A stretch of 64,000 bases of DNA, taken from the IMG/VR virus record IMGVR_UViG_3300024255_000002; one strand, 5' to 3'. The DNA comes from a virus. The position numbers and the translations under genes are program-made. Positions 5,168 to 64,000 of this stretch are shown here, piece after piece. Under the pieces are notes generated by a model, which saw only the letters and a program-made list of their open reading frames with translations, was not told the origin of the DNA and did no database searches. Positions within the stretch are counted from its first letter, which is position 1. Each line of letters begins with the position of its first letter.

Positions 5168-7879
5168 ATGGCTACTATAATAAAACCTAAACGAAGTGAA
5201 ACGTCAAGTTCAGCCCCTACGACTGCTAATCTTGCGGTCGGCGAAATAGCAATTAATACCGCCGACCAAAAGATATATACAAGAGATAGTGGTAACAACA
5301 TAGTAACTTTGGCACAACCAGGTTTATTAAACGTTGTGGAGGATACAACTCCACAACTAGGTGGCTCTTTAGATGTAAATGGTAATTTAATTACATCAAG
5401 TGCTGATATTCAACTAGACGCTGAAACTCAAATCAAATTAGACGCTAATTCTGCAGGAAATATATGGTTACAAGATAACGGAACAACATACGGTAAATTA
5501 TATAACTTCAATGGAATGAAGATTGAAAGTTCCATTTCTGATAATGATTTTCAAATATCAGTTAATGACGGTGGTAGTTTCATTAATGCACTTACTATTG
5601 ACGCTTCAGAGGAAGGTGATGCTACATTTAACTCTAACATATTTTTAGGTGATGATAAAAAAGTAAACTTCGGTGCTGATAGTGATTTACAGATTTACCA
5701 TGATGGCACTAACAGTTATATTGATGACGCAGGAACAGGTACAATATTTTATAGATCAGGAACACAAACATTTCAAAATGCTGCTGGTTCAAAAACAATG
5801 GCAGTGTTCAATGCGGCCACTTCCGTTGATTTAAGTTACGACAACAACATAAAATTTCAAACAACAACTGATGGTACACTTACATGTGGATCATCTACAA
5901 TAACTGACGGAACAGTTTCTTGGCCTTTTGCTTCAAAATCTGATAACTTACATATAGGAACAGACGCAAGTTGTTCACTTACAACTGGTACTAACAACAT
6001 TGCCGTAGGTTGTCAATCATTAAAATTAAACGAGGATGGTGCAAATAACATTGCCATCGGACAAAATTCTTTGTGTTGTGCTACAACACCTTCATGTAAC
6101 ATAGTAATAGGTAAAAATTCTTTATGTGCTTCAGATGAATGTACATTTGTTGGTTGTTGGAATGGTTCTTCATATCCAACAATAACACGATCAACAGAAA
6201 AAAATATAGTTATAGGTAATAATCTTATTACAAATGAGACTATGGCCCACAATAACACGATTATAGGGCACGACATTGCTACTGCTTCTGCTTCATATAT
6301 CTGTACTTGGGGATGTACTTGTACTTGTAACGGACTGTCAGCAATTCCTTATGATGAAAAAACAGCAAATAATAATACATTAATTGGTAATTGTATAGCT
6401 CCTTATTCTAGTAGAGTAGATAAAAATGTTATAATTGGATCATGTATTAATACCGACACTCAAGCACTTGCTAGTGTAAGTAATTCACAAATTTTTGGTT
6501 ACAATGTATTAAATTGTTCTGCAACATCGGGTGTCTGTTGTAACAGTTATGGTGGTAAGATAGAAAATTCTTTTATTTCTGGTACTTGCTTGTTTGATGG
6601 CCATGAAGTACAAACGCTTCTGCAAAACGTTATTATTGGTAGTGAAATCGGTTCTTCATCTTGTTTTCATCAACTTGGACCAAAAGATCCAAATAGTGAA
6701 TACGATTGTTGTGTACAATATCGGGACAGTATAATACTTGGTGCCTGTGCCTCACAGTGGGCATGGTGGAACCAATGTAGTGTTACCATTGGTAGTTCTG
6801 CTGGACTGGCACACAGCGTGAGTGATTATAACACTTATGTTGGAGCTGATTCTGGTGCTGGCTCGCCTAATTCACTATATACAAAAGAAAGAAACCTTAA
6901 AGGTTATTATAACACCGCTATTGGTACAGGTGCAATGGGCAATATGGGAGGAGACTGTGATACGAATGGTGATGACTTAATTATTTGTAGCAACACTGCC
7001 GTTGGTTCTGGTACTTTAAGTTATGTTGCTGGATGTGGAAATGTTGCAATTGGTAGATCCTCGTCTATGCTTTTGCGTAACGGAGATGATAATACAACTA
7101 TTGGATTCTGCTCTGGAATTCTTTTAGGATGTAGTGGTACAGCTGCATGTGATAACGTTCTTATTGGAAAAAGTGCTGGAAGTTTACTCGTTTCAGGATC
7201 GTGTAATATTGTTATCGGAGCTGACGTTGAAGCTTCATCCAATTCAGTTTCAAATGAAACTACTATTGGTGGTGCATGTTTAAGATTTCCAGGACTTCAA
7301 TCATCTGCTACAGACGGCCAAGTTTTAACATATTGTTCAACAAATGACAATATAGTATTTAAAGATGCTGGTGGTATGTCATGGGCAATATGCACATCAA
7401 ACTTTACAGCAGTTGCTGGTGAAGGATACTTTATAGATACATCTAGTTCTACCATAACATCAACTTTACCTGCGTCAGCAACTTTAGGTGATCAAATTCA
7501 CTTTAAAGATTACAACGATACGTTTGATACAAATAATTTAACAGTAGGTAGAAACTCACACAATATTGAAGGTTCTGCAACTGATTTACCAGTCAGCACT
7601 GAAGGTGCTGGATTTACTTTAGTATATGTAGATAATACTAGAGGATGGGTACATAAACACAAAATTGATGAACAATCATTTTTTAATGATTCAACTATAA
7701 CTATAACACCTGGTTCTGAAGGTAACTTTGATTTAAGTTTTGATCCGGATCAAACTACACAGGAAACACCATTTGAATCTGGAGGTGTTGACGCTTTTGG
7801 CGTTGCTGTATCTAGCTATCAATATAGTTTGATGGATCCAGTAAATGAATTAATAAACGTAGATTTAGGAGAGTTTTAA
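5168..7879 (+). CDS. long tail fibre with Cys-rich beta-helix/YadA-like N(T/I)(A/V)IG repeats
   Basis: 'IKPKRSE..P...L..GEIAIN..D' head; DTTPQLGG motif; many NxxIG repeats; C-terminal FTAVAGEGYFIDT module. Confidence 0.75.
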   Translation: MATIIKPKRSETSSSAPTTANLAVGEIAINTADQKIYTRDSGNNIVTLAQPGLLNVVEDTTPQLGGSLDVNGNLITSSADIQLDAETQIKLDANSAGNIWLQDNGTTYGKLYNFNGMKIESSISDNDFQISVNDGGSFINALTIDASEEGDATFNSNIFLGDDKKVNFGADSDLQIYHDGTNSYIDDAGTGTIFYRSGTQTFQNAAGSKTMAVFNAATSVDLSYDNNIKFQTTTDGTLTCGSSTITDGTVSWPFASKSDNLHIGTDASCSLTTGTNNIAVGCQSLKLNEDGANNIAIGQNSLCCATTPSCNIVIGKNSLCASDECTFVGCWNGSSYPTITRSTEKNIVIGNNLITNETMAHNNTIIGHDIATASASYICTWGCTCTCNGLSAIPYDEKTANNNTLIGNCIAPYSSRVDKNVIIGSCINTDTQALASVSNSQIFGYNVLNCSATSGVCCNSYGGKIENSFISGTCLFDGHEVQTLLQNVIIGSEIGSSSCFHQLGPKDPNSEYDCCVQYRDSIILGACASQWAWWNQCSVTIGSSAGLAHSVSDYNTYVGADSGAGSPNSLYTKERNLKGYYNTAIGTGAMGNMGGDCDTNGDDLIICSNTAVGSGTLSYVAGCGNVAIGRSSSMLLRNGDDNTTIGFCSGILLGCSGTAACDNVLIGKSAGSLLVSGSCNIVIGADVEASSNSVSNETTIGGACLRFPGLQSSATDGQVLTYCSTNDNIVFKDAGGMSWAICTSNFTAVAGEGYFIDTSSSTITSTLPASATLGDQIHFKDYNDTFDTNNLTVGRNSHNIEGSATDLPVSTEGAGFTLVYVDNTRGWVHKHKIDEQSFFNDSTITITPGSEGNFDLSFDPDQTTQETPFESGGVDAFGVAVSSYQYSLMDPVNELINVDLGEF

Positions 7880-9911: not shown

Positions 9912-10885
9912 TATGTCAGAATATACAGAAATAAAAGGAACAAATATAGAAGTAGTAACATCCGATCCTAGTAATCCACTGGATGGACAAATTTGGTTTA
10001 ATTCTACTTCAAATAAAATTAAACTTAGTAAACTTACTGCAACAGGATCGTGGGCAACTGGTGCGGCTTTAGGAACAACTAGAAATAGGTCTGCTGGTGC
10101 TGGAACTCAAACAGCAGCATTATGCATGGGTGGAGATACAGGACCGCCTACTAAATCTGCATTAACAGAACATTATGATGGATCTTCATGGACTGCTGGT
10201 GGAAATTTATCAACAGGAAGAAATCAAACTAGAGGATGTGGAGTTCAGACAGCTGCTCTACTTGTTGCTGGTTGGAGTCCTCCCTCTACAAACGCTGTAG
10301 AGGAATATAATGGTTCATCATGGACTGCTGGAGGTGATTATCCAGGATCCTATAGAAACGTAGGTATGACTGGAACTCAAACAGCAGCATTAGGTTTTGG
10401 TGGTAGAGGATGGGTTAATACTACATTTGAATATAACGGTACATCATGGGCTGCCGGAGGTAATTATCCAGCACCAGCAGATAGACTTGGAAGTGCAGGA
10501 ACTCAAACAGCTGGATTAGGTTGGGGTGGATGGAGTCCATCATTACCTGGGAGATATGATACTAGTAATCACTATGATGGTTCTTCATGGACGTCAGGTG
10601 GTGCTTTAGTAGCTGGTTTTCACGCTATGGGTTCCGCAGGAACGCAAACATCTGCTTTATCAGCAGGAGGTTCCCATGCTGACAGTAACAATAGTAATAC
10701 TTATGTATATGATGGTTCTACTTGGACATCTGACACAAGTTTGCCGAAGGACTTTACTGATGGACAAGGTGCTCAAAATTCATCTTCAGCTGCAGCTTTA
10801 GTTTTTGGTGGAATCAGTCCTGGGGGTCTCACTGCTGAATTTACTGGTGCAGGTTCTGTTGTTGAAACTATAACATCAAGTTAAT
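9877..10885 (+). repeat. 36-bp identical direct repeat at 3' ends of the two Kelch genes (9877-9912, 10850-10885)
   Basis: caggttctgttgttgaaactataacatcaagttaat at both positions. Confidence 0.9.
9913..10884 (+). CDS. Kelch-like beta-propeller protein, tandem paralogue
   Basis: Same repeats and N-terminus; identical C-terminus GSVVETITSS. Confidence 0.75.
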   Translation: MSEYTEIKGTNIEVVTSDPSNPLDGQIWFNSTSNKIKLSKLTATGSWATGAALGTTRNRSAGAGTQTAALCMGGDTGPPTKSALTEHYDGSSWTAGGNLSTGRNQTRGCGVQTAALLVAGWSPPSTNAVEEYNGSSWTAGGDYPGSYRNVGMTGTQTAALGFGGRGWVNTTFEYNGTSWAAGGNYPAPADRLGSAGTQTAGLGWGGWSPSLPGRYDTSNHYDGSSWTSGGALVAGFHAMGSAGTQTSALSAGGSHADSNNSNTYVYDGSTWTSDTSLPKDFTDGQGAQNSSSAAALVFGGISPGGLTAEFTGAGSVVETITSS

Positions 10886-10892
10886 TATTTTA

Positions 10893-10900
10893 TATAAATA
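10893..10900 (+). promoter_or_regulatory. late promoter TATAAATA heading the sulfotransferase/oxygenase cluster
   Basis: Exact consensus in intergenic DNA. Confidence 0.75.
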
Positions 10901-10942
10901 ATACTATATCATGGCATATAATATGCTTTATAACATAAGGAA

Positions 10943-11701
10943 ATGAAAATGAGTAATGAAAATAAAAAGCGAGATATAGTTGCCGCCTCAGAAGCAAACG
11001 TTAATCACTTATCAAATATATTAGACACAAACGATTTTAAATCTATTATGGATTTAAAAGACGAGTTAAAAGATACTTGGCATAAAAAACAAGTTTTTAG
11101 AACAGAAACAGAAATGAGAATGTCTGTTTTACAAGACGCAAAATATCCAACCAAAGCCGCAAAGTATTGGCAATGTGTAAGAGAACAAAATGTGTTCTTT
11201 GAAAATTTAATGTCTCTTTCATTTGAATATAGAAAAAATGAAGTTGAAATTAAAAAACTTAAAAAGAAAATTACACAAGAAACTGATTTATTAGAAAAAG
11301 AATTATTAGAGATTGAGTTAGAAGAAAAACTATACGGTAGAGCAAATACAGAATTAGTTGCTAAAGATCGTATGAGAGAAATAAATCAATGGTCTCAATT
11401 AAAAAAAGAATATGACGATGGTTCTTTTGACACAAAAAATGTAAATACACATCAAGCTGAATCATATAAAATGATGTTGACTAACAAAGTTAAAACGTTA
11501 ACTCCAGGATCGTCTCAACCTGAGGTATTTAATGCTGTCGGACAATTACAAACATTAGAACGACTTGAAAAAGAAGGTGTACTGTTGCCTTATAGCAATG
11601 AAGGTAAATCTAAATTAGGATACAATCCAAATCCTCAAAAAAGTGAAGATTTACATCTGTCTCTGTCTAGTAATATATCGACAAAATCTACTGATAAATA
11701 A
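10943..11701 (+). CDS. conserved hypothetical coiled-coil protein
   Basis: 252-aa ORF; 'FRTETEMR...KYWQCVREQ'. Confidence 0.7.
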   Translation: MKMSNENKKRDIVAASEANVNHLSNILDTNDFKSIMDLKDELKDTWHKKQVFRTETEMRMSVLQDAKYPTKAAKYWQCVREQNVFFENLMSLSFEYRKNEVEIKKLKKKITQETDLLEKELLEIELEEKLYGRANTELVAKDRMREINQWSQLKKEYDDGSFDTKNVNTHQAESYKMMLTNKVKTLTPGSSQPEVFNAVGQLQTLERLEKEGVLLPYSNEGKSKLGYNPNPQKSEDLHLSLSSNISTKSTDK

Positions 11702-11726
11702 TTAAATAAATTTATTATTTAATATT

Positions 11727-12521
11727 ATGAAGATATATGATTTTAATAAGGAGCTTTTTTTTCTGGTAGGATTGCCACGTTCAGGCAATACATTCTTTAG
11801 TTCGTTGATGAATCAAAATCCAGATATAGGAGTTACTGCAAACTCTATTTGTTTAGAAATATATAAAGATGTTTTTTTATTAAAAGAAACAGATATATTT
11901 TGTAACTATCCAGATCATAAATCTTTAGATAATGTTTTACGAAACATTTATAAAAATTATTACGAACATTGGCCTCAAAAGTACATTATTGAAAGAGGAC
12001 CTGCATTTACAACTGGCAATCAAATGGTGATTGAAAAATATCTAAATCAACCTGTTAAATGTATTATATTATGGAGAGATTTAATGGATGTAATTGCTTC
12101 ATATATCAAATGGTTTGAAAATGAACCAACTGCATTTATTAATAGGGTTGGTTTAAAAACAGTAGAAGAAAAAATAATGCATTTAATGAGTAAAGATGGT
12201 ATGGTTGCAAAATCATTAGATTGCATACAAAATGCATTGACACCAAAAAATAGATCAAAATTTCATATAGTAAAATATAATGATTTAGTAAGTAATCCTG
12301 AAAAAGAGATTACAAAAGTTTATTCATTTTTAAATATACCATCTTTCAATCATAACTATAATCATATAGAACAATATAGTTTAAATGGTATGAGTTACAA
12401 TGATAATATTCTTGGAAACAATTTACATACAATAAAATCTCAAATTAAATTAGAAGAAAACCCTTATAAAAAAATGATACCTGATAGTATTATAAAAAAA
12501 TATGGTCATATAAAATTATGA
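11727..12521 (+). CDS. sulfotransferase (Sulfotransfer_3-like)
   Basis: PAPS-binding loop 'GLPRSGNT', 'RD..DVIASY', 'VKYNDLVSNP'. Confidence 0.8.
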   Translation: MKIYDFNKELFFLVGLPRSGNTFFSSLMNQNPDIGVTANSICLEIYKDVFLLKETDIFCNYPDHKSLDNVLRNIYKNYYEHWPQKYIIERGPAFTTGNQMVIEKYLNQPVKCIILWRDLMDVIASYIKWFENEPTAFINRVGLKTVEEKIMHLMSKDGMVAKSLDCIQNALTPKNRSKFHIVKYNDLVSNPEKEITKVYSFLNIPSFNHNYNHIEQYSLNGMSYNDNILGNNLHTIKSQIKLEENPYKKMIPDSIIKKYGHIKL

Positions 12522-22977: not shown

Positions 22978-23003
22978 GGGCGCTTTTAGCGCCCTTATAA
23001 ATA
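22978..23003 (+). terminator. GC hairpin after gp19 abutting the late promoter for gp20
   Basis: gggcgct-ttt-agcgccc, then TATAAATA at 22996-23003. Confidence 0.6.
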
Positions 23004-26274: not shown

Positions 26275-26925
26275 ATGAAACTTATTACTGAAGAAATAGA
26301 AAACGCCGAGTACATTATTGAAGAATCAGGTAACGGCAAAAAAAATTACTCTATAAAGGGTGTCTTCATGCAAGCGGACATCAAAAATAAAAACGGTAGA
26401 GTTTATCCTAGAGAGACTCTTCAAAAAGAAATCGCTCGATATACAAGAGAGTTTATCGACAAAAGTAGAGCATTTGGCGAACTAGGTCATCCTGACGGTC
26501 CCACTGTCAACCTAGAAAGAGTATCGCACATGATCAAATCTTTAACTCCAGAAGGAAATAACTTTATAGGAGAGGCGAAAGTCTTAGATACCCCATATGG
26601 AAAAATTGTGAAGTCTTTAATTGATGAGGGTGCAAAACTAGGAGTTTCATCTCGTGGAATGGGAACATTAAAATCATCTAATGGAATGAATGTTGTCAAT
26701 GACGATTTTTATCTTGCTACAGCAGCTGATATAGTTGCAGACCCCAGCGCTCCAGACGCTTTCGTAGAAGGCATTATGGAAGGAAAAGAATGGGTATGGA
26801 ATAATGGAATATTGAGAGAGCAAGAAATGAAAGAATTAAAATTACAGGCAGATAAGAAAATACTAAGAGAAGAACGAGCAAATAAAAATGCTCAAATCTT
26901 TGAGAATTTTCTTAAAAAACTGTAA
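26275..26925 (+). CDS. gp21: prohead protease gp21
   Basis: 'MKLITE', 'NGRVY', 'GELGHP', 'GVSSRG.G', 'D.VADPSAPDA'; late promoter at 26239. Confidence 0.96.
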   Translation: MKLITEEIENAEYIIEESGNGKKNYSIKGVFMQADIKNKNGRVYPRETLQKEIARYTREFIDKSRAFGELGHPDGPTVNLERVSHMIKSLTPEGNNFIGEAKVLDTPYGKIVKSLIDEGAKLGVSSRGMGTLKSSNGMNVVNDDFYLATAADIVADPSAPDAFVEGIMEGKEWVWNNGILREQEMKELKLQADKKILREERANKNAQIFENFLKKL

Positions 26926-33242: not shown

Positions 33243-33271
33243 ATTATAACACTAAGAATCGCATATGTCAA
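33243..33271 (-). promoter_or_regulatory. perfect sigma70 promoter on the minus strand
   Basis: Reverse complement reads TTGACA-tatgcgattcttagtgt(17)-TATAAT, with extended -10 TG. Confidence 0.75.
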
Positions 33272-33277
33272 GTACCT

Positions 33278-33457
33278 ATGGAAGAATTCTATAAACTAAC
33301 AATAACAAGAAATAATAAGGAAGAAGAAATGTACTATGGATATCTCTCTTATGACCAGATAATCTGTGATGTTGATATACTCTATGAAGATGGCGCTGAT
33401 GCCGTTGAAATGGAAATGATAACAGAGAAAGAGTTTGAAAAAGAGTTAGCTTATTGA
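33278..33457 (+). CDS. small acidic hypothetical protein (59 aa, absent from ORF track)
   Basis: MEEFYKLTITRNNKEEEMYYGYLSYDQIICDVDILYEDGADAVEMEMITEKEFEKELAY*; fills the gap before gp55. Confidence 0.55.
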   Translation: MEEFYKLTITRNNKEEEMYYGYLSYDQIICDVDILYEDGADAVEMEMITEKEFEKELAY

Positions 33458-33481
33458 CAAATACACAAAATAGTATATAAT
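33454..33481 (+). promoter_or_regulatory. sigma70-type promoter for gp55
   Basis: TTGACA 33454-59, 16 nt, TATAAT 33476-81; in-frame ATG at 33489. Confidence 0.6.
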
Positions 33482-33488
33482 GTATAAT

Positions 33489-34040
33489 ATGACTAGAACG
33501 AAAAAAAAACCAGAACATTATGTAGATAATAAATTATTTCTACAGGCAATGATCGAATATAAAGATAAATGCGATAAGGCAGATAAGTCAAAAAGAAAAC
33601 ATCCACCTGTAACTAATTATATTGGTGAATGTTTTTTAAAAATTGCTAATCATTTATCTTATAGACCAAATTTCATTAACTATACTTTTAGAGACGATAT
33701 GATATCTGATGGTATAGAGAACTGTTTACAATACCTTAGTAATTTCAATCCACAAAAATCAAATAACCCATTTGCTTATTTTACACAAATAATATATTAC
33801 GCTTTTATTAGAAGAATACAGAAAGAGAAAAAACAAGCAAGTATCAAATACAAGATGATTGAACAAGCAGGTATTGATGAATATGATACTCTACCAGGTG
33901 ATACTAATACTGAATACAAGAATCAGTTTTTAGAGTTTCTAAGAAAAAATAGGCCTAGTGAAGAACAACCTAAACCAAAAGAAATCAAAATCAGAAAAAG
34001 AAAAAGAAAAACTGCCGATATTAATTTAGAAGAAATTTAA
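33489..34040 (+). CDS. gp55: late-transcription sigma factor gp55
   Basis: 'HYVDNK.F', 'IGECF.KIA..LS.RPNF..Y', 'NPFAYFTQI...AF.RRI.KEK'; alternative start at 33480. Confidence 0.96.
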   Translation: MTRTKKKPEHYVDNKLFLQAMIEYKDKCDKADKSKRKHPPVTNYIGECFLKIANHLSYRPNFINYTFRDDMISDGIENCLQYLSNFNPQKSNNPFAYFTQIIYYAFIRRIQKEKKQASIKYKMIEQAGIDEYDTLPGDTNTEYKNQFLEFLRKNRPSEEQPKPKEIKIRKRKRKTADINLEEI

Positions 34041-52082: not shown

Positions 52083-52231
52083 CAAATGCCATAATACTAT
52101 TAATGCTATTTTATATGAGTATCTGGTTATTTTTTCATTGGGGTGAAAGGCTTGCAATGACAAGAATAGATACTAAAGCATTTTTAATTATAATATTGAC
52201 AATATGGATATCGATAAAAAGTATAACGTAA
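52079..52231 (+). CDS. small two-TM membrane protein (50 aa, absent from ORF track)
   Basis: ATGA overlap with the gp43 stop; MTNAIILLMLFYMSIWLFFHWGERLAMTRIDTKAFLIIILTIWISIKSIT*. Confidence 0.5.
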   Translation: MTNAIILLMLFYMSIWLFFHWGERLAMTRIDTKAFLIIILTIWISIKSIT

Positions 52232-52746
52232 TATATGCCGACCCACCATGGTCGTTTAAAACTTATTCTGACAAGGGCAAAGATAGAAGTCCTGAAAATC
52301 ATTATAACGTTATGTCTTTACAGGACATAAAAGATTTGCCAGTAAATAAGATTGCAAATGATGATTCAGTTTTATTAATGTGGGTCATTGATCCTTTATT
52401 AGATAAAGCATTTGAAGTAATAAACGCATGGGGTTTTAAATATAAAACTGTTGCCTTTACATGGGCAAAGACAAATAAAACTAAACCAGGATTCTTTACA
52501 GGATTAGGATATTGGACTAGAGGTAATCCTGAAATGTGTTTACTTGCCACAAAAGGTAAACCTAAAAGACTAAGTAAGTCTGTGCCACAACTAGTTGTAG
52601 AACAACGGAGAGAACATAGCAGAAAACCAGATATAATGTACAACCATATAGAGAATTTACTAGAGGGACCTTATATTGAAATGTTTGCTAGAACACAAAA
52701 ACCTGGTTGGGATGCATGGGGTAATCAACTTGACAAATTTAAATAA
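52204..52746 (+). CDS. MT-A70 family adenine methyltransferase
   Basis: IYADPPW, 'HY..M', 'G.GYWTR.N.E..L', HSRKP, E.FAR, WGNQ. Confidence 0.9.
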   Translation: MDIDKKYNVIYADPPWSFKTYSDKGKDRSPENHYNVMSLQDIKDLPVNKIANDDSVLLMWVIDPLLDKAFEVINAWGFKYKTVAFTWAKTNKTKPGFFTGLGYWTRGNPEMCLLATKGKPKRLSKSVPQLVVEQRREHSRKPDIMYNHIENLLEGPYIEMFARTQKPGWDAWGNQLDKFK

Positions 52747-52762: not shown

Positions 52763-54028
52763 ATGAATTATCTGAAAAAATATGCAAATGAAAACAAGTT
52801 GCCTATAATGGATCAACAGACATTTGAGTCCATTACAAACGAAATAGGCAAAGAAAAATTTAGAGAAGACCTAGCAGAATATATTTCTGTTGTTAGGCCT
52901 GTATATCCTTTAAAACAAATCTCATATGATATAATGAGACAATCATTTAAGAGTTTACAAAAACAAGATGTTTGGGAATATATTAAACCATTAGAACAAT
53001 TAGAAAAAAGTGTTAAAGAAAAATATGATGATTTAAAATATAACTTCAAAGACCATGGTCTAGGTGTTATAGACGCACCATCTATTTACAATGACGTTTC
53101 AAATCATTTTCACCAAGAGTTGAGATTAAATTGCTCAAGTTATAGTTTCAAAGGACCTTTAGATGTATGGTATAAAGGAACTGCAAAAGATATATGGCGA
53201 TGTTTAGGACCTATATGGCGTGGTATCAATAATATGAAACCTGCTATGATAGATGGCAAACAAGAACTAAGAGGTGGTAACTTATCAGAATCAAGTTACA
53301 TGAGTGCATTTAGATTAGGAACTTATATTGCAACACAATTTAAACCTAATGTTGCAAAAGCAATATATCAAATGACAGACGCAAAAAGAGTATTAGATAC
53401 TTCATGTGGTTGGGGTGATAGACTTGCTGGTTTCTTTACTAGTGACGCTGAAGAATATATCGGTTGCGATCCTAATCCTAACACTTACAAACTATACATG
53501 AAACAGATAGAAGTTTACAATAGTTTTTTACCAGAAGAAAAACAGAAAAAAGTTACTATCTATAATTGTGGTGCTGAAGATTTGCCATGGGATGAAATAA
53601 AAGATATTGATTGTGCCTTTACAAGTCCACCTTATTTCTCAACTGAAAGATATAATGAAGGTGGTGAAAAAGAAGAAAATCAATCATGGTTTAAATTTGA
53701 TGAATATGCTAAATGGCGTGATGACTTTTATTTACCAGTTGCACAAAAAAGTTTTGAGAGATCAAAACATATGTTTGTAAACATTATGGATCCAACAATT
53801 AAAGGTAAGAGATATTTTAGTTGTGATGAATTAGTTGATAGTTTAAAAGATAACTTTGTAGGACAAATCGGTATGAGAATAATGCAAAGACCTAAGTCAG
53901 ATAAACTATTTGAAAGTGAAGAAGCAAAAGCAGAATTTATGAATCGTATTTTTATTGAAAACGTTTGGTGTTTTTCAAAAGAAAAATTAGATTACTTTAG
54001 ACACAGTAGAAAAGCAACCTTGTTTTAA
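52763..54028 (+). CDS. amino DNA methyltransferase, same family as 38362..39447
   Basis: 'QFKP..AK.IY', 'VLDTSCGWGDRL.G', 'FTSPPY'. Confidence 0.8.
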   Translation: MNYLKKYANENKLPIMDQQTFESITNEIGKEKFREDLAEYISVVRPVYPLKQISYDIMRQSFKSLQKQDVWEYIKPLEQLEKSVKEKYDDLKYNFKDHGLGVIDAPSIYNDVSNHFHQELRLNCSSYSFKGPLDVWYKGTAKDIWRCLGPIWRGINNMKPAMIDGKQELRGGNLSESSYMSAFRLGTYIATQFKPNVAKAIYQMTDAKRVLDTSCGWGDRLAGFFTSDAEEYIGCDPNPNTYKLYMKQIEVYNSFLPEEKQKKVTIYNCGAEDLPWDEIKDIDCAFTSPPYFSTERYNEGGEKEENQSWFKFDEYAKWRDDFYLPVAQKSFERSKHMFVNIMDPTIKGKRYFSCDELVDSLKDNFVGQIGMRIMQRPKSDKLFESEEAKAEFMNRIFIENVWCFSKEKLDYFRHSRKATLF

Positions 54029-57397: not shown

Positions 57398-58642
57398 ATG
57401 CCAAACTTAAATAATATAAGCGTTAAAGAAGGAGAATTTACTGCTATGCAGGAAAAGGCAACTGCCTTTATATTCAAACGTTCTTATTTACCACCTAAAA
57501 AAAGATTTAAATCAGCGGAAGATATTGTTAAAGATAAAGACACTGTAAAAGGTTTAAAAGAAATATTTGTGTTTAACAATAAACAACTGTTTAACTACAC
57601 ACTCCCCTGGTCTCAAAACCAAGAAAAAGTTTGGTTTGAAACTTTTTATAAACAACATGAAAAGATATTAGATGTTTTTCCTAATGCTAAATTTACTATT
57701 TTTGATAGAGACGATAAAAATGGTTTTATGGAATGGTTTCAAAAACTCATAAAAGATTACTTCAGAATATCAAAGAAAGATAGTTATAATCCTGCTGATA
57801 TTTGGTTAATAGATAAAAAAGAAGTTAATAGAAAAACCATAATAAAAGAATTAAACCAAGATTCTGCTACAAGAACCCTTACAGAATTAAATCAAGTAAT
57901 GAGATCACTATACAATGAAAAAAAAGTTGTGGGACTTTCTTTAAAATTAGTATCAGGACAAACAGCAAAGTATGAAAGAGTAAACCTTGATGATAAGTTT
58001 TTTAAAGATTTAGAAGCTAAAAAAGGTGTATATGATTATAAACTTAGTGATATAAAAATGGACTTAACTACCATTGGATCAGGAAAAAGAGCCAATTGGA
58101 AAACACAGGACACAGTTATTTCTCTAAGTCTTAACAATTCGATAAAAGTAAAATTTCAAGTTAAAGGAAACGGAACTTCTAAATTTGAAAATTTAAAAAT
58201 TGAAGGAACGGGTGTTGGGGAAAAGGCAAGACTTGGTAAAGCACCTCTACTACTTATTTCTAAATTAACAAGTGGTAAACCATATAAGAAAACATTTCAA
58301 AACAGATTTGCTGATTTTCCAAAAGATACAAAAGAGTTTATAAAACAATCTAAAAAATATAATAATATGTTTAGTGAACTAGTAGCAAATTGTAAAAAAA
58401 ATAATATAAGATTAGTAACTAATATATTACCTAAAGATTTTACAAAGCAGATGAAGATTGCTTTTGACGGAGAGAAACCTTGGATTGCAAATTCTAAATT
58501 AATGCAATTAACCTTTGTTCATACGATTTGTTCAATGGTAAACAAAGATATGATGGATGAATATGTTACTGATATTTTATTCTTGTCTAAAAAAGAAGGA
58601 AGAAATATCTTTCAATTTGGCCCTTTTGGTAAACTATATTAG
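57398..58642 (+). CDS. putative PD-(D/E)xK-like nuclease
   Basis: N-terminal 'QE', 'YNPADIWL' and 'VVGLSLK' resemble a PD..(S/E)xK core. Confidence 0.45.
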   Translation: MPNLNNISVKEGEFTAMQEKATAFIFKRSYLPPKKRFKSAEDIVKDKDTVKGLKEIFVFNNKQLFNYTLPWSQNQEKVWFETFYKQHEKILDVFPNAKFTIFDRDDKNGFMEWFQKLIKDYFRISKKDSYNPADIWLIDKKEVNRKTIIKELNQDSATRTLTELNQVMRSLYNEKKVVGLSLKLVSGQTAKYERVNLDDKFFKDLEAKKGVYDYKLSDIKMDLTTIGSGKRANWKTQDTVISLSLNNSIKVKFQVKGNGTSKFENLKIEGTGVGEKARLGKAPLLLISKLTSGKPYKKTFQNRFADFPKDTKEFIKQSKKYNNMFSELVANCKKNNIRLVTNILPKDFTKQMKIAFDGEKPWIANSKLMQLTFVHTICSMVNKDMMDEYVTDILFLSKKEGRNIFQFGPFGKLY

Positions 58643-58716
58643 TATAAATAGTCATAAAAAAGATTGTATTTGTTTATGGAATAGTGCTTGACAAATAGCA
58701 CTAAATTTGATATAAT
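58643..58716 (+). promoter_or_regulatory. tandem late (TATAAATA 58643-50) and sigma70 (TTGACA 58688-93, 17 nt, TATAAT 58711-16) promoters with an inverted repeat over the -35
   Basis: tagtgct(58682-88)...agcacta(58697-703). Confidence 0.75.
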
Positions 58717-58743
58717 ATATTATATGGATAACGTGGGAGAAAC

Positions 58744-59967
58744 ATGCAAAGTTTTAAACAATATTTAAGTGAGGCTAAAAATACTCATTTAGAACATTTA
58801 GAAGATTCTATCATTAATGATGGATATGAAGGTGGTGTTAATGCCATTACATTTCTTAAATCATTAAGAGATATGCTTATCGGATCGTCAAGTAGAGGAT
58901 TAAACGTTTCAGTAAAATGGGACGGTGCTCCTGCTGTGATCTGTGGTATCAATCCTGAAAACGGCAAATTCTTTGTTGGATCAAAATCAGTATTCAACGT
59001 AACTCCCAAAATAAATTATACATCTGCTGATATTAGAAGAAATCACACAGGCGGACTTGCTGAAAAATTACAAGTTGCATTAGTAGAATTAAAGAAATTA
59101 GGAATCAAAGGCGTTGTTCAAGGTGACTTTTTATACACTAACAATGAATTAAAAAGTGCCAACATAAGAGGTGAAAGTGTTTTAACTTTTACACCTAATA
59201 CAATCACATATGCTGTGCCTGTAGATAGTACAATAGGTAAAAGAATTGCCTCTGCTAAAATGGGTATCATATTTCACACAACATACACTGGTAGAAAAAT
59301 GGCAGACTTAAAAGCAAACTTTGGTGTGAACGTAAGTTCATTTAGAAAAACATCATCTGTATTTTTTGATGACGCAGGATACAAAGACGCTTCAGGTGTT
59401 GCTACATTTACAACTGCTGAAAGTGAAAGATATGACGCAATGTTAAGAATGGCATTTGGTTCTGTAAGTAAAGGCAGACCAATATTAAACTTATTAAGTA
59501 AACAACAAAATTTATATTCTGTTGGTGCTAGACTTAAAATATTTTTCAATGACTTTATTAGAAGAGGTCAATCAATAGAAAATGTAAGTAAGTTAGTATC
59601 ACAATTTAGAACATATTATATTAGTGTTTTAGACAAAGAAATATCGGCAAGAAAAACACAAAATGCAAAAGATAAATTTGAAGCAATCAAAAATGAAGGA
59701 CTAAAATTTATGGAAAAAAATGAAGTCGGTATATATTTTGCCATTGCTAGTTATGTGACATTACAAAGAGTAAAAGATTTCTTAATAAACAAAATGAATC
59801 AAATAAAAAGTATAGGAACATTTTTACAAAAAGACAATGGGTTTGAAGTTACAAATCCAGAAGGATATGTTGCCGTAGATAGAATGGGCAACGCTGTAAA
59901 ACTAGTTGATAGATTAGAGTTTAGTACTGCTAACTTTAATATTTCTAAGAACTGGATAAAAGGATAA
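58744..59967 (+). CDS. ATP-dependent ligase-like nucleotidyltransferase (RNA-ligase-like) with capsid-targeting-like N-terminus
   Basis: Motif I VKWDG, Ia FVGSKS, III VVQGD, IV PEGYV, V VKLVDR; starts MQSFKQYLSE-A. Confidence 0.6.
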   Translation: MQSFKQYLSEAKNTHLEHLEDSIINDGYEGGVNAITFLKSLRDMLIGSSSRGLNVSVKWDGAPAVICGINPENGKFFVGSKSVFNVTPKINYTSADIRRNHTGGLAEKLQVALVELKKLGIKGVVQGDFLYTNNELKSANIRGESVLTFTPNTITYAVPVDSTIGKRIASAKMGIIFHTTYTGRKMADLKANFGVNVSSFRKTSSVFFDDAGYKDASGVATFTTAESERYDAMLRMAFGSVSKGRPILNLLSKQQNLYSVGARLKIFFNDFIRRGQSIENVSKLVSQFRTYYISVLDKEISARKTQNAKDKFEAIKNEGLKFMEKNEVGIYFAIASYVTLQRVKDFLINKMNQIKSIGTFLQKDNGFEVTNPEGYVAVDRMGNAVKLVDRLEFSTANFNISKNWIKG

Positions 59968-59970
59968 GAT

Positions 59971-61329
59971 ATGGCAAATTTTAGAAAAGACTCACAGGCA
60001 TTTTTAAACGATAGTAAAACTATCTTTGAAGTACCAATGATAGCAACAAAAGATGGTAATGTTGTATCACAAACAAATCCGTTTCCAGTCACAATATCAA
60101 ATACTGGAACCAGTCAAACAATTTCAACAGAAACAAATGTGGATGCTTTTGGTAGAAGTAGAATATCATCACCACTAACACTATTTGATTCCTCACATAG
60201 ATTTGCTGATAATGATTTATGGAATGAAGATATTACAGGTGACGCTTCATCAACCTTTCAAATAAATGAGGGTCTAATAGATTTAACAGTTGGTGATAAT
60301 GCTAATGATGAAATTATTAGAGAAACAAATAAAGTAATGGCTTATCAACCTGGTAAATCATTGTTAATTTTAAATTCTTTTATATTTAATGCTGCTAAAA
60401 CTGGATTAAGACAAAGAATAGGATATTTTGGAACAGACAATGGTATCTATTTTGAACAAGATGGTACAGATGTTTATATAGTAGAAAGAAGTAAAATAAC
60501 AGGTTCAGTTGTAGAAAGTAGAATTGCTCAAGCAGATTGGAATATAGATAAATTAGATGGCACAGGTATAACAGGTTATACTTTAGATTTAACAAAAGCA
60601 CAAATTCAATATATAGATTTAGAATGGTTAGGTGTAGGAACCGTAAGAGCAGGTTTTGTTATTAATGGTAGATTTGTAGTTGCTCACGCATTTCATCACG
60701 CTAATTTAGTATCTGGAACATATATCACTACAGGTTCTTTACCTTTAAGATGTGAAATTAAACAACAAACGGAAGTTGGAGATGGTTCTACCGCTACATT
60801 AAAACAAGTTTGTTCTAGTGTTATGAGTGAAGGTGGTTATGAATTAAGAGGAAGGCAACAAGCTATTGGAACAGTGATTACTTCTCCTTATAGATTAACA
60901 ACTGCTGGAACTTATTATCCTGTAGCTTCTATAAGACTAAAAGCTGCAAGACTAGATGCAATTGTTATTCTTACTGCTTTATCTTTATTGGGAACTGGAA
61001 ATGGAAAATTTTATAATTGGCAAGTGGTTGCTGGTGGAAGTATTGCGGGTGGAACTTGGGTGTCTGGTGGAGCAAACTCATCTGTTGAATATAATATTAC
61101 AGGCACTGATCACACATTAGGGACAGGAAGAATATTGGCTAGTGGTTTTACTTCTTCTTCCAAACAAATAAGTGAATCTATTAATATATTAAAAGAAGCT
61201 TTATTTAAGTTTCAATTAGAGAGAAATACATTTACTAGTACACCTGAAATTTTAACATTGAGATTGGCTTGTGATAGTAATACAGAAGATGTTTTTGGTT
61301 CCATGGACTGGGAGGAGGTTACTAGATAA
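59971..61329 (+). CDS. hypothetical beta-rich protein, probably virion structural
   Basis: 'NPFPV', 'DAFGR.R.S.P.TLF', 'YQPGKS', 'EWLGVG.VR.GF'; G/T-rich. Confidence 0.55.
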   Translation: MANFRKDSQAFLNDSKTIFEVPMIATKDGNVVSQTNPFPVTISNTGTSQTISTETNVDAFGRSRISSPLTLFDSSHRFADNDLWNEDITGDASSTFQINEGLIDLTVGDNANDEIIRETNKVMAYQPGKSLLILNSFIFNAAKTGLRQRIGYFGTDNGIYFEQDGTDVYIVERSKITGSVVESRIAQADWNIDKLDGTGITGYTLDLTKAQIQYIDLEWLGVGTVRAGFVINGRFVVAHAFHHANLVSGTYITTGSLPLRCEIKQQTEVGDGSTATLKQVCSSVMSEGGYELRGRQQAIGTVITSPYRLTTAGTYYPVASIRLKAARLDAIVILTALSLLGTGNGKFYNWQVVAGGSIAGGTWVSGGANSSVEYNITGTDHTLGTGRILASGFTSSSKQISESINILKEALFKFQLERNTFTSTPEILTLRLACDSNTEDVFGSMDWEEVTR

Positions 61330-61913
61330 TGAAAACATTTAGAACATATATTAAAGAGGCACAACAAAGACGAATAGTTATGTTAGGTGGTCCTGGTTCA
61401 GGTAAATCAACATACACTAAGTATTTGATGGATAGATACGGCATACCTCACATATATCCAGGTGGCATGTTAAGAAAAGAAGTTGAGAAAAATACAGAAA
61501 TAGGAAAACAAATTAAAGATTTAATTACAAAAGGTAAGTTTGCACCTAGTGAAATGGTTTTAAAACTTATTAAAGACAGAATTGCAGAAAGTCCAGACGG
61601 ATATGTATTAGACGGATGGCCTAGATATATGAAACAAGTAAGAGAAATGGAACGAGAAAATATCGGACATGATGTTGCTGTGTTTTTAGATGTAAGTAAA
61701 GAAGAAGTAATGAAACGATTACTTGCAAGAGGTAGAGTTGATGATACCGAAGAAGTTATCAACGATAGAATTAAACTATACAAAGAAGAAACTGGTCCTG
61801 TTGTAGAATACTTTAGAAATAAACCTGGTTTTATAAGTATTAAAGCAGAGGGTGATACACCAGAAAACATTAGTAAAAAAATTATTAGAGAAATAGAAAA
61901 TGAAAAGCTTTAA
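61329..61913 (+). CDS. adk: adenylate kinase (short-LID type) with capsid-targeting-like N-terminus
   Basis: GGPGSGKST, 'G.MLR', 'VLDGWPR', 'RGR.DD...I..R...Y...T.PV'; starts MKTFRTYIKE-A. Confidence 0.88.
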   Translation: MKTFRTYIKEAQQRRIVMLGGPGSGKSTYTKYLMDRYGIPHIYPGGMLRKEVEKNTEIGKQIKDLITKGKFAPSEMVLKLIKDRIAESPDGYVLDGWPRYMKQVREMERENIGHDVAVFLDVSKEEVMKRLLARGRVDDTEEVINDRIKLYKEETGPVVEYFRNKPGFISIKAEGDTPENISKKIIREIENEKL

Positions 61914-64000
61914 ACAATTTAACGAGTCTATTATAGACATACCAAGAAAAACGTATGCAAAGGCAGTATTTGATAAACCAGATACACCTAATCCAGAGTT
62001 AAAAGCTTCAGTTAAAAAACAAGTATTAGACGGAATTAAGTCATTTGAAAAATTTGGAAAAGTAGTTAAGTATGGTCTTATTGGATCAATACTAACAAAA
62101 CAATATAGAGGTGACGCTGACCTTGATGTTAATATTTTATTTGATATACCTGGTTCAAAAGAAGAACAAGAAAAGGTACATGAAAAAATAAAAGAACATC
62201 AATATGAAATAAATGGTAAAACAATACCAGGCAGTGAACATCCTATAAACTATTTTTCTATCATAGATCCTGCTATATTTGATAAGGCAAATAAGATGGC
62301 AGATGGTATTTTTGATATCGATAAGAACAAATGGATCAAAAAACCAGAACCAGGCAAATTTGAACCTGAAAAATATATGGCGGATTTTCAGAAACGAGTA
62401 TCTGAAATAGATGTTGTTAAGGGTGAATTGGCAAGAGACATGATTGATTATGAAGAACTAAAAGAACTAGGCAAAGACGATATAGAAAACCTAGAAGGAT
62501 TAGTTTCTAAAAAGTTAGCTGAAATTAAAGATTCCATTAACACATTATTTGATATTGGTGCTAAAACTGTTAAAGATCGAAAAGACGCTTTCTTAGCAGA
62601 TATGTCACCAGACGAAGTAAGAAAATTTGGAGTAAAAAACCGACTTCCTAAAAACGTGATTTATAAAATGTTAGAAAAGTATCATTATCTCAAATTCTTT
62701 AAAACTTTGGAAGAGATTATGTTGGATGGTAAAATAACACCAGATGAACTTAAATCGTTATCTAAGATTAAAGAAGCCAAAGGTAGACATATAGCGTTTA
62801 CCTTTGGCCGATTTAATCCACCTACAATAGGACATGGAAAATTATTACAAAAATTATTTACAGTTAGAGCAGACAACCACTTTATATTTTTAAGTAGATC
62901 GGAAGACTCAGATAAGAACCCATTATCATTTAGAGAGAAGTCAAAAGTTATGAAACAAATGTTTCCTAGATATGCTTCAAACATAATAGTAAGTGGTTCA
63001 AATAGAGTATTTGATATAGTCACTGATCTTTACAATAAAGGTGCTACAGAATTATCAATGGTTGTCGGTTCAGATAGAGTAAGAGAATTTGACACCACTA
63101 TTAAAAAATATAATGGTGTAAAAAGCAGACATGGTTATTATAACTTTGATAACATTAATATAGTTTCTGCTGGAGAAAGAGATCCAGATGCTGACGGCGC
63201 TACAGGAATGTCAGCAAGTAAAATGAGAGCGGCCGCTAAGGCAAATGATTTAGATGCATTTAAAAAAGGATTGCCAAGTGGATTTAGAGACGCCGAAGAA
63301 TTAATAAAAAGATTAAGACAAGGCATGAGATTGGCTGCTTCAAACGATCCAGAAATAGAAGAAGGAACATTAAAGTTTAAACCATTTATAACTGCTTCTA
63401 CAAAAGAGGAGTTAGAAAATATGATTATAAGAGACAAGTATTTAACAGAGCATTTATATGATGTAGGAGACATTGTTGATGATGTTGAGAATAAAGTTAC
63501 AGGTGTTATCGTAAGACGAGGAACAAACTATGTAACACTTGAAGACGTTGATAATAAACTACATAAGTCATGGTTATTTAATATTATTGAATCGCCTGTT
63601 TATCCTAGAGAATTAGACGAGTCGGCAAAAAAATTAAAATACGACAAAGAGACAGATCAACCTAAAAAATATGTTGCTGGTTTATCAGACAAAGAGAAGA
63701 AGTCACACGACAAACATTTAGAAAAACAAGGCAAAAAATCTGACGATGATAAAAGTGCTTACACACAATCGCCAGCAGATAAAGTTGCTAAAACTAAACC
63801 AAGTGTTCATACAAAGAAATTCAAACAAATGTATGGTGAACTTAAAACTGAAAAAGAGCCACAAAAAAGAGGTGATGAATTTGTAGATACTGGATTGCCT
63901 GAAAGTTCAAATAGAAAGGCAGATGAGTTAGAACATGCTAAATTAATGAATAAGGCACTTAGAACTATGCCACAATCTATTAAACAAAAAGAAATTATAA
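61900..64000 (+). CDS. large multidomain protein, 3'-truncated: Pol-beta-type nucleotidyltransferase + HxGH cytidylyltransferase-like domain + further domains (absent from ORF track because it runs off the window)
   Basis: Manual translation open from ATG 61900 to the window end: MKSFKQFNES...LIGSILTKQYRGDADLDV (GS..DxD)...TFGRFNPPTIGHGKL...VGSDR...SAGERDPD..MSASKMR. Confidence 0.8.
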   Translation, partial: MKSFKQFNESIIDIPRKTYAKAVFDKPDTPNPELKASVKKQVLDGIKSFEKFGKVVKYGLIGSILTKQYRGDADLDVNILFDIPGSKEEQEKVHEKIKEHQYEINGKTIPGSEHPINYFSIIDPAIFDKANKMADGIFDIDKNKWIKKPEPGKFEPEKYMADFQKRVSEIDVVKGELARDMIDYEELKELGKDDIENLEGLVSKKLAEIKDSINTLFDIGAKTVKDRKDAFLADMSPDEVRKFGVKNRLPKNVIYKMLEKYHYLKFFKTLEEIMLDGKITPDELKSLSKIKEAKGRHIAFTFGRFNPPTIGHGKLLQKLFTVRADNHFIFLSRSEDSDKNPLSFREKSKVMKQMFPRYASNIIVSGSNRVFDIVTDLYNKGATELSMVVGSDRVREFDTTIKKYNGVKSRHGYYNFDNINIVSAGERDPDADGATGMSASKMRAAAKANDLDAFKKGLPSGFRDAEELIKRLRQGMRLAASNDPEIEEGTLKFKPFITASTKEELENMIIRDKYLTEHLYDVGDIVDDVENKVTGVIVRRGTNYVTLEDVDNKLHKSWLFNIIESPVYPRELDESAKKLKYDKETDQPKKYVAGLSDKEKKSHDKHLEKQGKKSDDDKSAYTQSPADKVAKTKPSVHTKKFKQMYGELKTEKEPQKRGDEFVDTGLPESSNRKADELEHAKLMNKALRTMPQSIKQKEII

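Follow-up and report, generated by a model that had tools for sequence, protein, structure and literature searches.

What does a phage do with a conserved gene that lies behind its replicative helicase and that is annotated in its relatives as "hypothetical" or as a DUF? The question is raised by a 64,000-nucleotide viral sequence, IMG/VR record IMGVR_UViG_3300024255_000002 (the whole of this stretch is called the window below), and by its gene for a protein of the Pfam family DUF6267. We conclude, with a probability of roughly 0.9, that DUF6267 belongs by fold to the covalent nucleotidyltransferase (ligase) superfamily. Within the superfamily we file it as a new branch, which most resembles the RNA ligases but is not recognised by the family models for Rnl1, Rnl2 or the DNA ligases. 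These proteins are probably active enzymes that attach a nucleotide to a lysine and join ends, and the substrate is somewhat more likely to be RNA, or a nick whose 3'-OH strand is RNA, than DNA.

A conserved family with ligase motifs

The window comes from a SAR11-type T4-like myophage, has a GC content of about 31%, and carries all of its genes on the plus strand. Among these are genes for a T4-type portal, prohead protease, scaffold and capsid, and for gp43, UvsX and gp41. The DUF6267 gene is an open frame of 407 amino acids that begins with ATG; a Shine-Dalgarno sequence, GGGAG, is found at 58735-58739, four bases ahead of the start, and the opposite strand is closed by many stops. Its product, P0001, matches the Pfam DUF6267 profile (PF19782) over its full length with an E value of 5e-123 (411.6 bits, cut-off 27), residues 13-402 covering profile positions 1-376. 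It also matches the N-terminal half of phrog_455, while an NCBIfam scan returned no match. The closest isolate match is in Pelagibacter phage HTVC008M, at 52% identity, and the family as a whole comprises 2,736 clusters (50% identity) at E values up to 1e-3. DUF6267 is nowhere mentioned in the library of papers that was searched, which does not include Burroughs & Aravind 2016, on RNA repair systems. The features of the gene, with residues numbered as in P0001, are these:

58744-59967, plus strand: DUF6267 protein P0001, predicted ligase-type nucleotidyltransferase fold (open reading frame, Pfam, AlphaFold2 model, structure search)
58744-58773, plus strand: decapeptide MQSFKQYLSE, similar to the capsid-targeting sequence of T4; putative cleavage by the prohead protease after E10
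58777-58806, plus strand: KNTHLEHLED, the conserved start of the domain (alignment)
58909-58932, plus strand: motif I, SVKWDGAP, residues 56-63 (conservation, strand position, hhalign)
58969-58989, plus strand: motif Ia, FFVGSKS, in which FVGSKS is residues 77-82, with K81 (conservation, hhalign)
59113-59130, plus strand: candidate motif III, VVQGDF, residues 124-129, with Q126-G127-D128 (register against known ligases provisional)
59194-59214, plus strand: PNTITYA, with Y156, on strand 155-159, as candidate motif IIIa aromatic (provisional assignment)
59413-59805, plus strand: helical insert, residues 224-354 (five helices in the AlphaFold2 model)
59854-59874, plus strand: motif IV, NPEGYVA, residues 371-377, with E373 and G374 (conservation, hhalign)
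59893-59913, plus strand: motif V, AVKLVDR, residues 384-390, with K386, D389 and R390 (conservation, hhalign)

Conservation was read from an alignment of 101 DUF6267 sequences that are 36-98% identical. The columns of H18, K58, D60, G68, P71, F77, Y156, G174, H178, G374, K386 and N397 are invariant, and those of H15 (99 of 101), E20, G61 (100 of 101), K81, Q126 (96 of 101), G127 and D128 (each 99 of 101), E373 (100 of 101), D389 and R390 are conserved in at least 90% of the sequences. An earlier note on this DNA, made from the sequence alone, had picked out SVKWDGAP, FVGSKS, VVQGDF, NPEGYVA and AVKLVDR as the motif set of the superfamily. All five strings are present and stand on invariant or near-invariant columns. 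They coincide with the most strongly selected columns of the alignment, so that the strings are under selection and not chance occurrences. The segment KNTHLEHLED, in which D21 is conserved along with the two histidines and E20, possibly contacts metal or nucleotide. To the family-specific invariants H15, H18, Y156, H178 and N397 no ligase counterpart could be assigned.

Predicted structure

The AlphaFold2 model of P0001, built from the same alignment, has a predicted local distance difference test score (pLDDT) of 91 and a predicted template modelling score of 0.86. Residues 1-11 are disordered (pLDDT below 50). After them come a long helix at 19-46, then a beta core at 54-210, a set of five helices at 224-354, four strands within 358-388 that include EGYVA and AVKLV, and finally a terminal helix. 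In the model K58 ends the strand 54-58, just ahead of the WDGAP loop, strand 374-378 begins at E373-G374, and K386 lies on strand 384-388. D128 is placed on strand 124-132 and Y156 on strand 155-159, in a register against solved ligases that we infer. These strands correspond to the ones that bear motifs I, IV and V, and putatively III, in ligases. The long insert that the earlier note had expected to be helical, ahead of motif IV, is real in the model, being made up of the five helices. The same note had seen no C-terminal OB domain, and there is no room for one, as P0001 ends 17 residues past motif V. Together with the N-terminal helix the insert seems to make up an accessory bundle of its own; matches to the helical bundle cover model residues 24 to about 353. 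Some cyanophages seem to have a shorter insert: in S-RIM8 the match spans query residues 13-404 in 888 nucleotides.

Comparison of the model with solved structures, a check that the note had proposed, recovered the adenylation fold. In an exhaustive VIA-align search of 48,161 chains the best 19 matches are all polynucleotide ligases, with Z scores from 5.7 to 8.6. The scores by class are:

NgrRnl (5cot): Z 8.6, over 183 amino acids at 3.8 Å
TbREL1, T4 Rnl2 and Trl1: Z 7.7
T4 Rnl1 and Rnl3: Z 7.0
DNA ligases: Z 5.0-6.5
capping enzyme: Z 4.8

An unbroken run of ligases at the top of such a list would not be expected by chance. When members of the family were set aside, the first named matches in a structure search of BFVD were mostly viral RNA ligases, and fold and feature searches of the ESM-Atlas returned only the DUF6267 family itself and unnamed viral clusters. 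BFVD also holds a 728-residue protein of Synechococcus phage metaG-MbCM1, H8ZNG8, that matches DUF6267 structurally over about 410 columns under the name "NrdB ribonucleotide reductase"; the name is probably a mis-annotation or reflects a fusion.

We call the family RNA-ligase-like because it has no OB domain, carries a helical accessory bundle, and ranks RNA ligases first among its structural matches. NgrRnl (Rnl5, 5cot), T4 Rnl2 (2hvq) and REL1 (1xdn), which are the best of these (177-199 residues at 3.8-5.0 Å), likewise combine a nucleotidyltransferase domain with a non-OB or helical accessory module. They differ from DUF6267 in sequence (10-14% identity, and no PF09414 match for DUF6267) and in the topology of the accessory module, which DUF6267 builds from an insert and an N-terminal helix. 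T4 Rnl1 (gp63, PF09511) and fungal Trl1 share the nucleotidyltransferase fold (Z 7.0 and 7.7, respectively) and the lack of an OB domain, and Rnl1 has the KxDG lysine, the motif Ia lysine and the EGYVAV...K block of motifs IV and V at equal spacing. However, the accessory domain of Rnl1 is appended at the C-terminus, whereas that of DUF6267 lies between motifs IIIa and IV; DUF6267 also has a single motif V lysine, the N-terminal KNTHLEHLED segment and no match to the Rnl1 model, and lacks the C-terminal helical domain that follows motif V in Rnl1 and confers tRNA specificity. The helical module of DUF6267 may be the functional analogue of those that Rnl1 and Rnl2 carry, although its topology is different. 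Fold and catalytic-residue conservation agree in placing the protein among the RNA-ligase-like members of the superfamily that have no OB domain, and to this extent the interpretation in the earlier note stands.

Sequence comparison with characterised ligases

The correct motif register was obtained only when the N-terminal and C-terminal parts of the family were aligned separately; the full-length alignment was misled by the insert. In hhalign comparisons with a 12-sequence Rnl1 profile, the C-terminal part placed E373-G374 on E227-G228 and K386 on K240 (E = 8e-4), and the N-terminal part placed K58, G61 and K81 on K99, G102 and K119 of T4 Rnl1 (E = 0.065). The string EGYVAV is the same in P0001 and in T4 Rnl1, residues 227-232. 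The aligned T4 Rnl1 residues (K99, G102, K119, E227-G228 and K240) are reportedly essential, according to mutagenesis by the Shuman laboratory. Sub-threshold matches to the Rnl1 family, PF09511, occur in 3 of the 101 aligned members (best E value 6e-4), but P0001 itself has none at E values up to 10 (cut-off 28.3 bits). It also has no Pfam match to the Rnl2/REL1 family (PF09414), nor a C-terminal domain of that kind, and no match to the DNA ligase (PF01068) or OB (PF04679) models. In sequence searches of solved structures P0001 matched none, and no ligase was found either with the single sequence or with the profile of the alignment.

These and other results weigh against the ligase assignment. 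Sequence tools yield no statistically solid tie to any characterised ligase: full-length hhalign comparisons with T4 Rnl1, gp30 and the 12-sequence Rnl1 profile gave probabilities of about 2% or less, and a hidden Markov model of the alignment found no signal in any of the T4 open reading frames of a 44-kb region that includes rnlA and gene 30. The structural scores point the same way, the best VIA-align value (Z 8.6) being at the top of what is a "middling" range for that program, and a Foldseek search of the PDB giving weak matches, the best to the DNA ligase 3gde and nothing at or below 1e-3. Motif V has one lysine, the second being absent, and R54, K75 and F77, which we take to be essential upstream residues of Rnl1, have no visible counterparts in P0001. 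Finally, K58 is predicted to be the ligase lysine from its position in the secondary structure and from a weak profile alignment. The failure of the full-length profile comparisons is explained in part by the accessory helices, which sit inside the adenylation domain.

If the ligase assignment is correct, K58 would attack the alpha-phosphate of ATP to give an enzyme-lysine-AMP intermediate, D60, K81, D128, E373 and K386 keeping the nucleotide and metal in place. The AMP would then move to a 5'-phosphate end, and attack by a 3'-OH would seal the break. DUF6267 probably works jointly with a nucleotidyltransferase of the NMNAT-like HIGH type, with which it often forms a fusion protein.

Neighbouring genes and fusions

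The order gp43 - UvsX - gp41 - phrog_1462 - DUF6267 - cytidylyltransferase-like is conserved, and in S-CAM1 and S-SZBM1 the primase gene gp61 is found near this block. The genes that flank DUF6267 in the window are:

57398-58642, plus strand: upstream neighbour phrog_1462, no Pfam match, PD-(D/E)xK-like residue pattern (synteny)
59971-61329, plus strand: phrog_1645, "virion structural protein"; SSZBM1_139 is its counterpart by position and size
61329-61913, plus strand: adenylate kinase, N-terminus MKTFRTYIKE
61900-63999, plus strand: P0272, a Pol-beta nucleotidyltransferase with a HIGH-type NMNAT-like domain, running off the window; N-terminus MKSFKQFNES

In many relatives, S-PM2 included, DUF6267 is fused to a CTP_transf_like (HIGH-type) domain on one side or the other; in the window this partner domain is found two genes downstream, in P0272. 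The partner weakly resembles NMN/NaMN adenylyltransferases, and NMNAT-like proteins of this kind have been found in purified virions of S-SZBM1, S-CREM2, S-SCSM1 and S-CBWM1 (PMC9146016, PMC10665884, PMC9602691). SSZBM1_139 has been detected in virions by mass spectrometry (PMC9146016). The cytidylyltransferase-like partner often has a C-terminal DUF5824 domain (HTVC008M 10407-12197; P0218). We considered P0272 as an RlaP protein and rejected the idea, its Pol-beta domain giving a weak NTP_transf_2 match and no PF10127 match.

The upstream neighbour has its own set of invariant residues (D128, P132-A133-D134 and S181-L182-K183), and its features in the Atlas lean weakly toward HpaII/HaeIII-type restriction enzymes. 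The idea of an "Okazaki nuclease plus ligase" pair was not sustained, as the AlphaFold2 model of phrog_1462 (pLDDT 85) gave no decisive fold match. Were the neighbour a nuclease, it and DUF6267 might form a module behind gp41 for end processing and sealing. Between gp43 and UvsX the window carries, on the plus strand, an MT-A70-type methyltransferase (52204-52746) and a weakly N6/N4 methylase-like protein (52763-54028); HTVC008M has a "putative cytoplasmic protein" in that place.

Promoters, leader peptide and possible packaging

The spacer of 100 nucleotides ahead of the DUF6267 gene contains two promoter-like sequences:

58643-58650, plus strand: T4 late-promoter-like TATAAATA, directly after the stop of the upstream gene
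58688-58716, plus strand: sigma-70 promoter TTGACA-N17-TATAAT, perfect at 12/12 consensus positions, with the TG of an extended -10 element

The late-promoter sequence TATAAATA occurs 17 times in the window, a total not above chance (13.5 expected). All copies are on the plus strand and most stand ahead of structural genes (for example at 22996, 26239 and 26929, besides 58643), and in strand and position they fit what would be expected of T4-type late promoters in a pelagimyophage. Perfect TTGACA-N16-18-TATAAT sites number 6 against 0.19 expected from shuffled sequences; one is on the minus strand (33243-33271) and the others are on the plus strand (at 33454, 45680, 46196, 52730 and 58688). 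The minus-strand site faces a divergent 80-residue open reading frame at 33276-33518. The arrangement suggests that the DUF6267 gene heads its own transcription unit, which would be read early by the host RNA polymerase and again late, so that the protein would be made from both promoters in this phage.

P0001 begins with MQSFKQYLSE/A, the slash marking the putative cut, compared with MKTYQEFIAE for the capsid-targeting sequence of T4 (PMC8442874). In T4 it is residues 4 and 7 of this peptide that specify targeting, and residues 8 and 10 guide the cut made by the prohead protease (PMC9026906). Conservation of the leader in the 101-sequence alignment falls exactly at these determinants, F4, F/Y7, L/I8 and E10. 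The adenylate kinase (MKTFRTYIKE/A) and P0272 begin with a like peptide. The gene therefore resembles those of the T4 internal proteins and Alt in its decapeptide, with aromatic residues at 4 and 7, L/I at 8 and E at 10, in the late promoter that precedes it, and in the presence of a gp21-like prohead protease in the window (26275-26925). It differs from the T4 internal proteins and Alt in that the putative cargo would be a ligase-fold enzyme and in that several orthologues have no such peptide.

The presumed processing site was sought as [LIVM]xE at 4-7 residues before the first conserved histidine in 129 representatives with a locatable histidine motif. The counts, which come from related sequences and are not independent, were:

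direct start at (A)KNTHLEHLED: site in 2 of 19
short-leader forms: site in 71 of 84
large N-terminal fusions: site in 23 of 26
random 9-residue windows: site in 7.9%

The motif thus marks the domain boundary whatever precedes it, as expected of a prohead-protease site and of polyprotein cargo. In P0272 the string IKE/A stands directly ahead of the FGRFNPPTIGH domain, which suggests that this protein too may be a polyprotein cut by the protease.

Packaging has evidence against it as well. The targeting peptide is missing from the DUF6267 orthologues of HTVC008M, S-CAM1 and S-SZBM1, and the main text of the paper on S-SZBM1, its virion mass spectrometry table included, does not name the orthologue of that phage (PMC9146016). 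The leader-bearing cytidylyltransferase of S-SZBM1 does appear in that table (PMC9146016). Judged from these sequence features, packaging and injection of P0001 in this phage are plausible at roughly even odds; P0001 would then probably be loaded into the head, trimmed by the prohead protease after E10, and injected with the DNA.

A joint reading of these results would make DUF6267 the ligase that has long been sought in the dominant myoviruses of the ocean, delivered as capsid cargo and not simply expressed. In such a scheme a precursor, sometimes a polyprotein with the NMNAT-like enzyme, would be brought to the prohead by its T4-like targeting sequence, cleaved by the prohead protease at a conserved phi-x-E site to expose KNTHLEHLED, and injected with the genome; nicked nucleic acid would be repaired, and NAD+ and adenylates restored with the help of the partners, before phage transcription begins. 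Taken as a whole, this combination is doubtful.

Alternative functions

A different answer is that DUF6267 is the "missing" replicative DNA ligase, sealing Okazaki-fragment and recombination nicks in place of gp30. Position and distribution speak for it. The gene lies in the replication block behind gp43, UvsX, gp41 and the neighbour, with gp61 nearby in the two cyanophages named above. DUF6267 is found in 368 Synechococcus and 61 "Cyanophage" records, compared with 382 and 62 for the T4-like portal; it is a core gene of the T4-like cyanophages, present in about 97% of records, and is labelled T4-GC 71 in P-HM2. Pelagibacter and Methylophilales phages have it too. Enterobacterial, Aeromonas and Acinetobacter T4-like phages, which are not among the organisms listed for DUF6267, carry gp30 (2,390 records) and Rnl1 (1,863 records), so that gp30 and DUF6267 have complementary distributions among T4-like phages.

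Ligase complements were tested on complete genomes related to the window phage, in place of its own. Five complete Kyanoviridae genomes (HTVC008M, S-CAM1, Melnitz-3, P-HM2 and S-SZBM1) have no match to PF01068 or PF01653, and the first four of these have none to PF09414 or PF09511. In the five genomes scanned, which come from T4-like cyanophages, pelagiphages and methylophages, no ligase-like protein other than DUF6267 was recognised. Cyanomyoviruses are reported to lack gp30 and rnh, in a review that leaves room for unrecognised distant homologues of both (PMC2984593).

Structure speaks less clearly for a DNA ligase. T4 gp30 and the ATP-dependent DNA ligases of Chlorella-virus type (PF01068 plus OB) have the fold in common with DUF6267 (Z 5.5-5.9), along with motifs I, IV and V and, provisionally, III, and DNA ligases are among the fold matches at Z 5-6.5, but RNA ligases outscore them. 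Moreover, DUF6267 lacks the OB domain, motif VI, the DNA-binding domain and the latch. In known ATP-dependent DNA ligases the OB domain and motif VI serve adenylylation and nick clamping. Neither a capsid-targeting peptide nor an early sigma-70 promoter is what a replisome enzyme needs, and the host LigA can serve the phage (PMC2984593). The Pseudoalteromonas phage vB_Psh_XG4, a T4-like phage that is not a cyanophage, encodes four ligase-fold proteins, DUF6267 alongside a gp30-type ligase, Rnl1 and Rnl2, and this gene set counts against a simple replacement of gp30. On balance we consider a replicative DNA ligase unlikely, though not remotely so.

The earlier note had gone on to propose an anti-defence enzyme, by comparison with T4 Rnl1, which repairs tRNA cut by an anticodon nuclease. 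This part of its interpretation fared less well than the RNA-ligase-like assignment. The segment from motif IV to motif V is nearly identical to that of T4 Rnl1 (EGYVAV...G..K), the sub-threshold PF09511 matches lie in the same direction, and Trl1 and Rnl1 are among the best fold matches. Near the HTVC008M orthologue there are a Zeta/AAA_33 kinase that resembles polynucleotide kinase (PNK) and an NT5C/HAD phosphatase, so that RNA repair stays possible. Against undoing of anticodon-nuclease damage are the failure of the Rnl1 family model, an architecture without the C-terminal tRNA-binding domain, and the coexistence of DUF6267 in vB_Psh_XG4 with a true Rnl1, as well as with Rnl2 and a DNA ligase. 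The conserved partner is the NMNAT-like nucleotidyltransferase and not Pnkp, of which the window encodes none. There are no tRNA genes in the 64-kb window, so that adjacency to them does not bear on this reading here. Anticodon nucleases of SAR11 or picocyanobacteria did not come to light, though no search was directed at them. The tRNA-repair and anti-defence reading is possible but without specific support, and we regard an Rnl1-type tRNA repair ligase as quite unlikely.

The partners raise another possibility, that the lysyl-AMP chemistry is directed at small molecules, together with the NMNAT-like protein, the adenylate kinase and the Pol-beta nucleotidyltransferase, and that DUF6267 is not a polynucleotide ligase. 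The enzyme-AMP might, for example, react reversibly with NMN to give NAD+, or dinucleoside polyphosphates might be made. The purpose would be a kit, delivered by the virion, to replenish NAD+ and adenylates as infection begins. The recurrent fusion to, or adjacency with, the NMNAT-like HIGH-type protein is consistent with this, as are the presence of the adenylate kinase, with its like N-terminal peptide, in the DUF6267 unit, the NMNAT-like proteins of cyanophage virions, and the family-specific invariants (H15, H18, Y156, H178 and N397) that match nothing in ligases. To our knowledge, however, there is no precedent for a ligase-fold enzyme that has a small molecule as its physiological product. 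The helical accessory domain is a feature by which RNA ligases hold nucleic acid, and the PNK/zeta-like kinase and HAD phosphatase of HTVC008M point to nucleic-acid ends. In vB_Psh_XG4 (5374-7080) DUF6267 directly follows an Rv2179c-like 3'-5' exoribonuclease and has no adjacent NMNAT-like gene. Small-molecule chemistry is in our estimate decidedly unlikely.

That DUF6267 is a catalytically dead ligase-fold protein, serving only as capsid cargo or scaffold, would agree with its capsid-targeting-like peptide, late promoter and virion-protein neighbours, but the residues that are strictly invariant across sequences 36-50% identical overall are catalytic ones (K58, D60, G374 and K386), and this reading is very improbable.

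Implications

Few viruses of the sea are more abundant than T4-like cyanophages and pelagiphages; nearly all genomes of the former carry a DUF6267 gene, and the family fills thousands of clusters of metagenomic sequences. The family would add to the ligase superfamily a structurally distinct branch, in which the accessory domain is inserted inside the adenylation domain. A core protein with a ligase fold, encoded behind the replicative helicase, makes the question of the missing gp30 and RNase H directly testable. Finally, the fusions to NMNAT-like enzymes, together with a leader that carries a protease site and resembles a capsid-targeting sequence, suggest that marine phages may have a class of enzymes that they inject as cargo.

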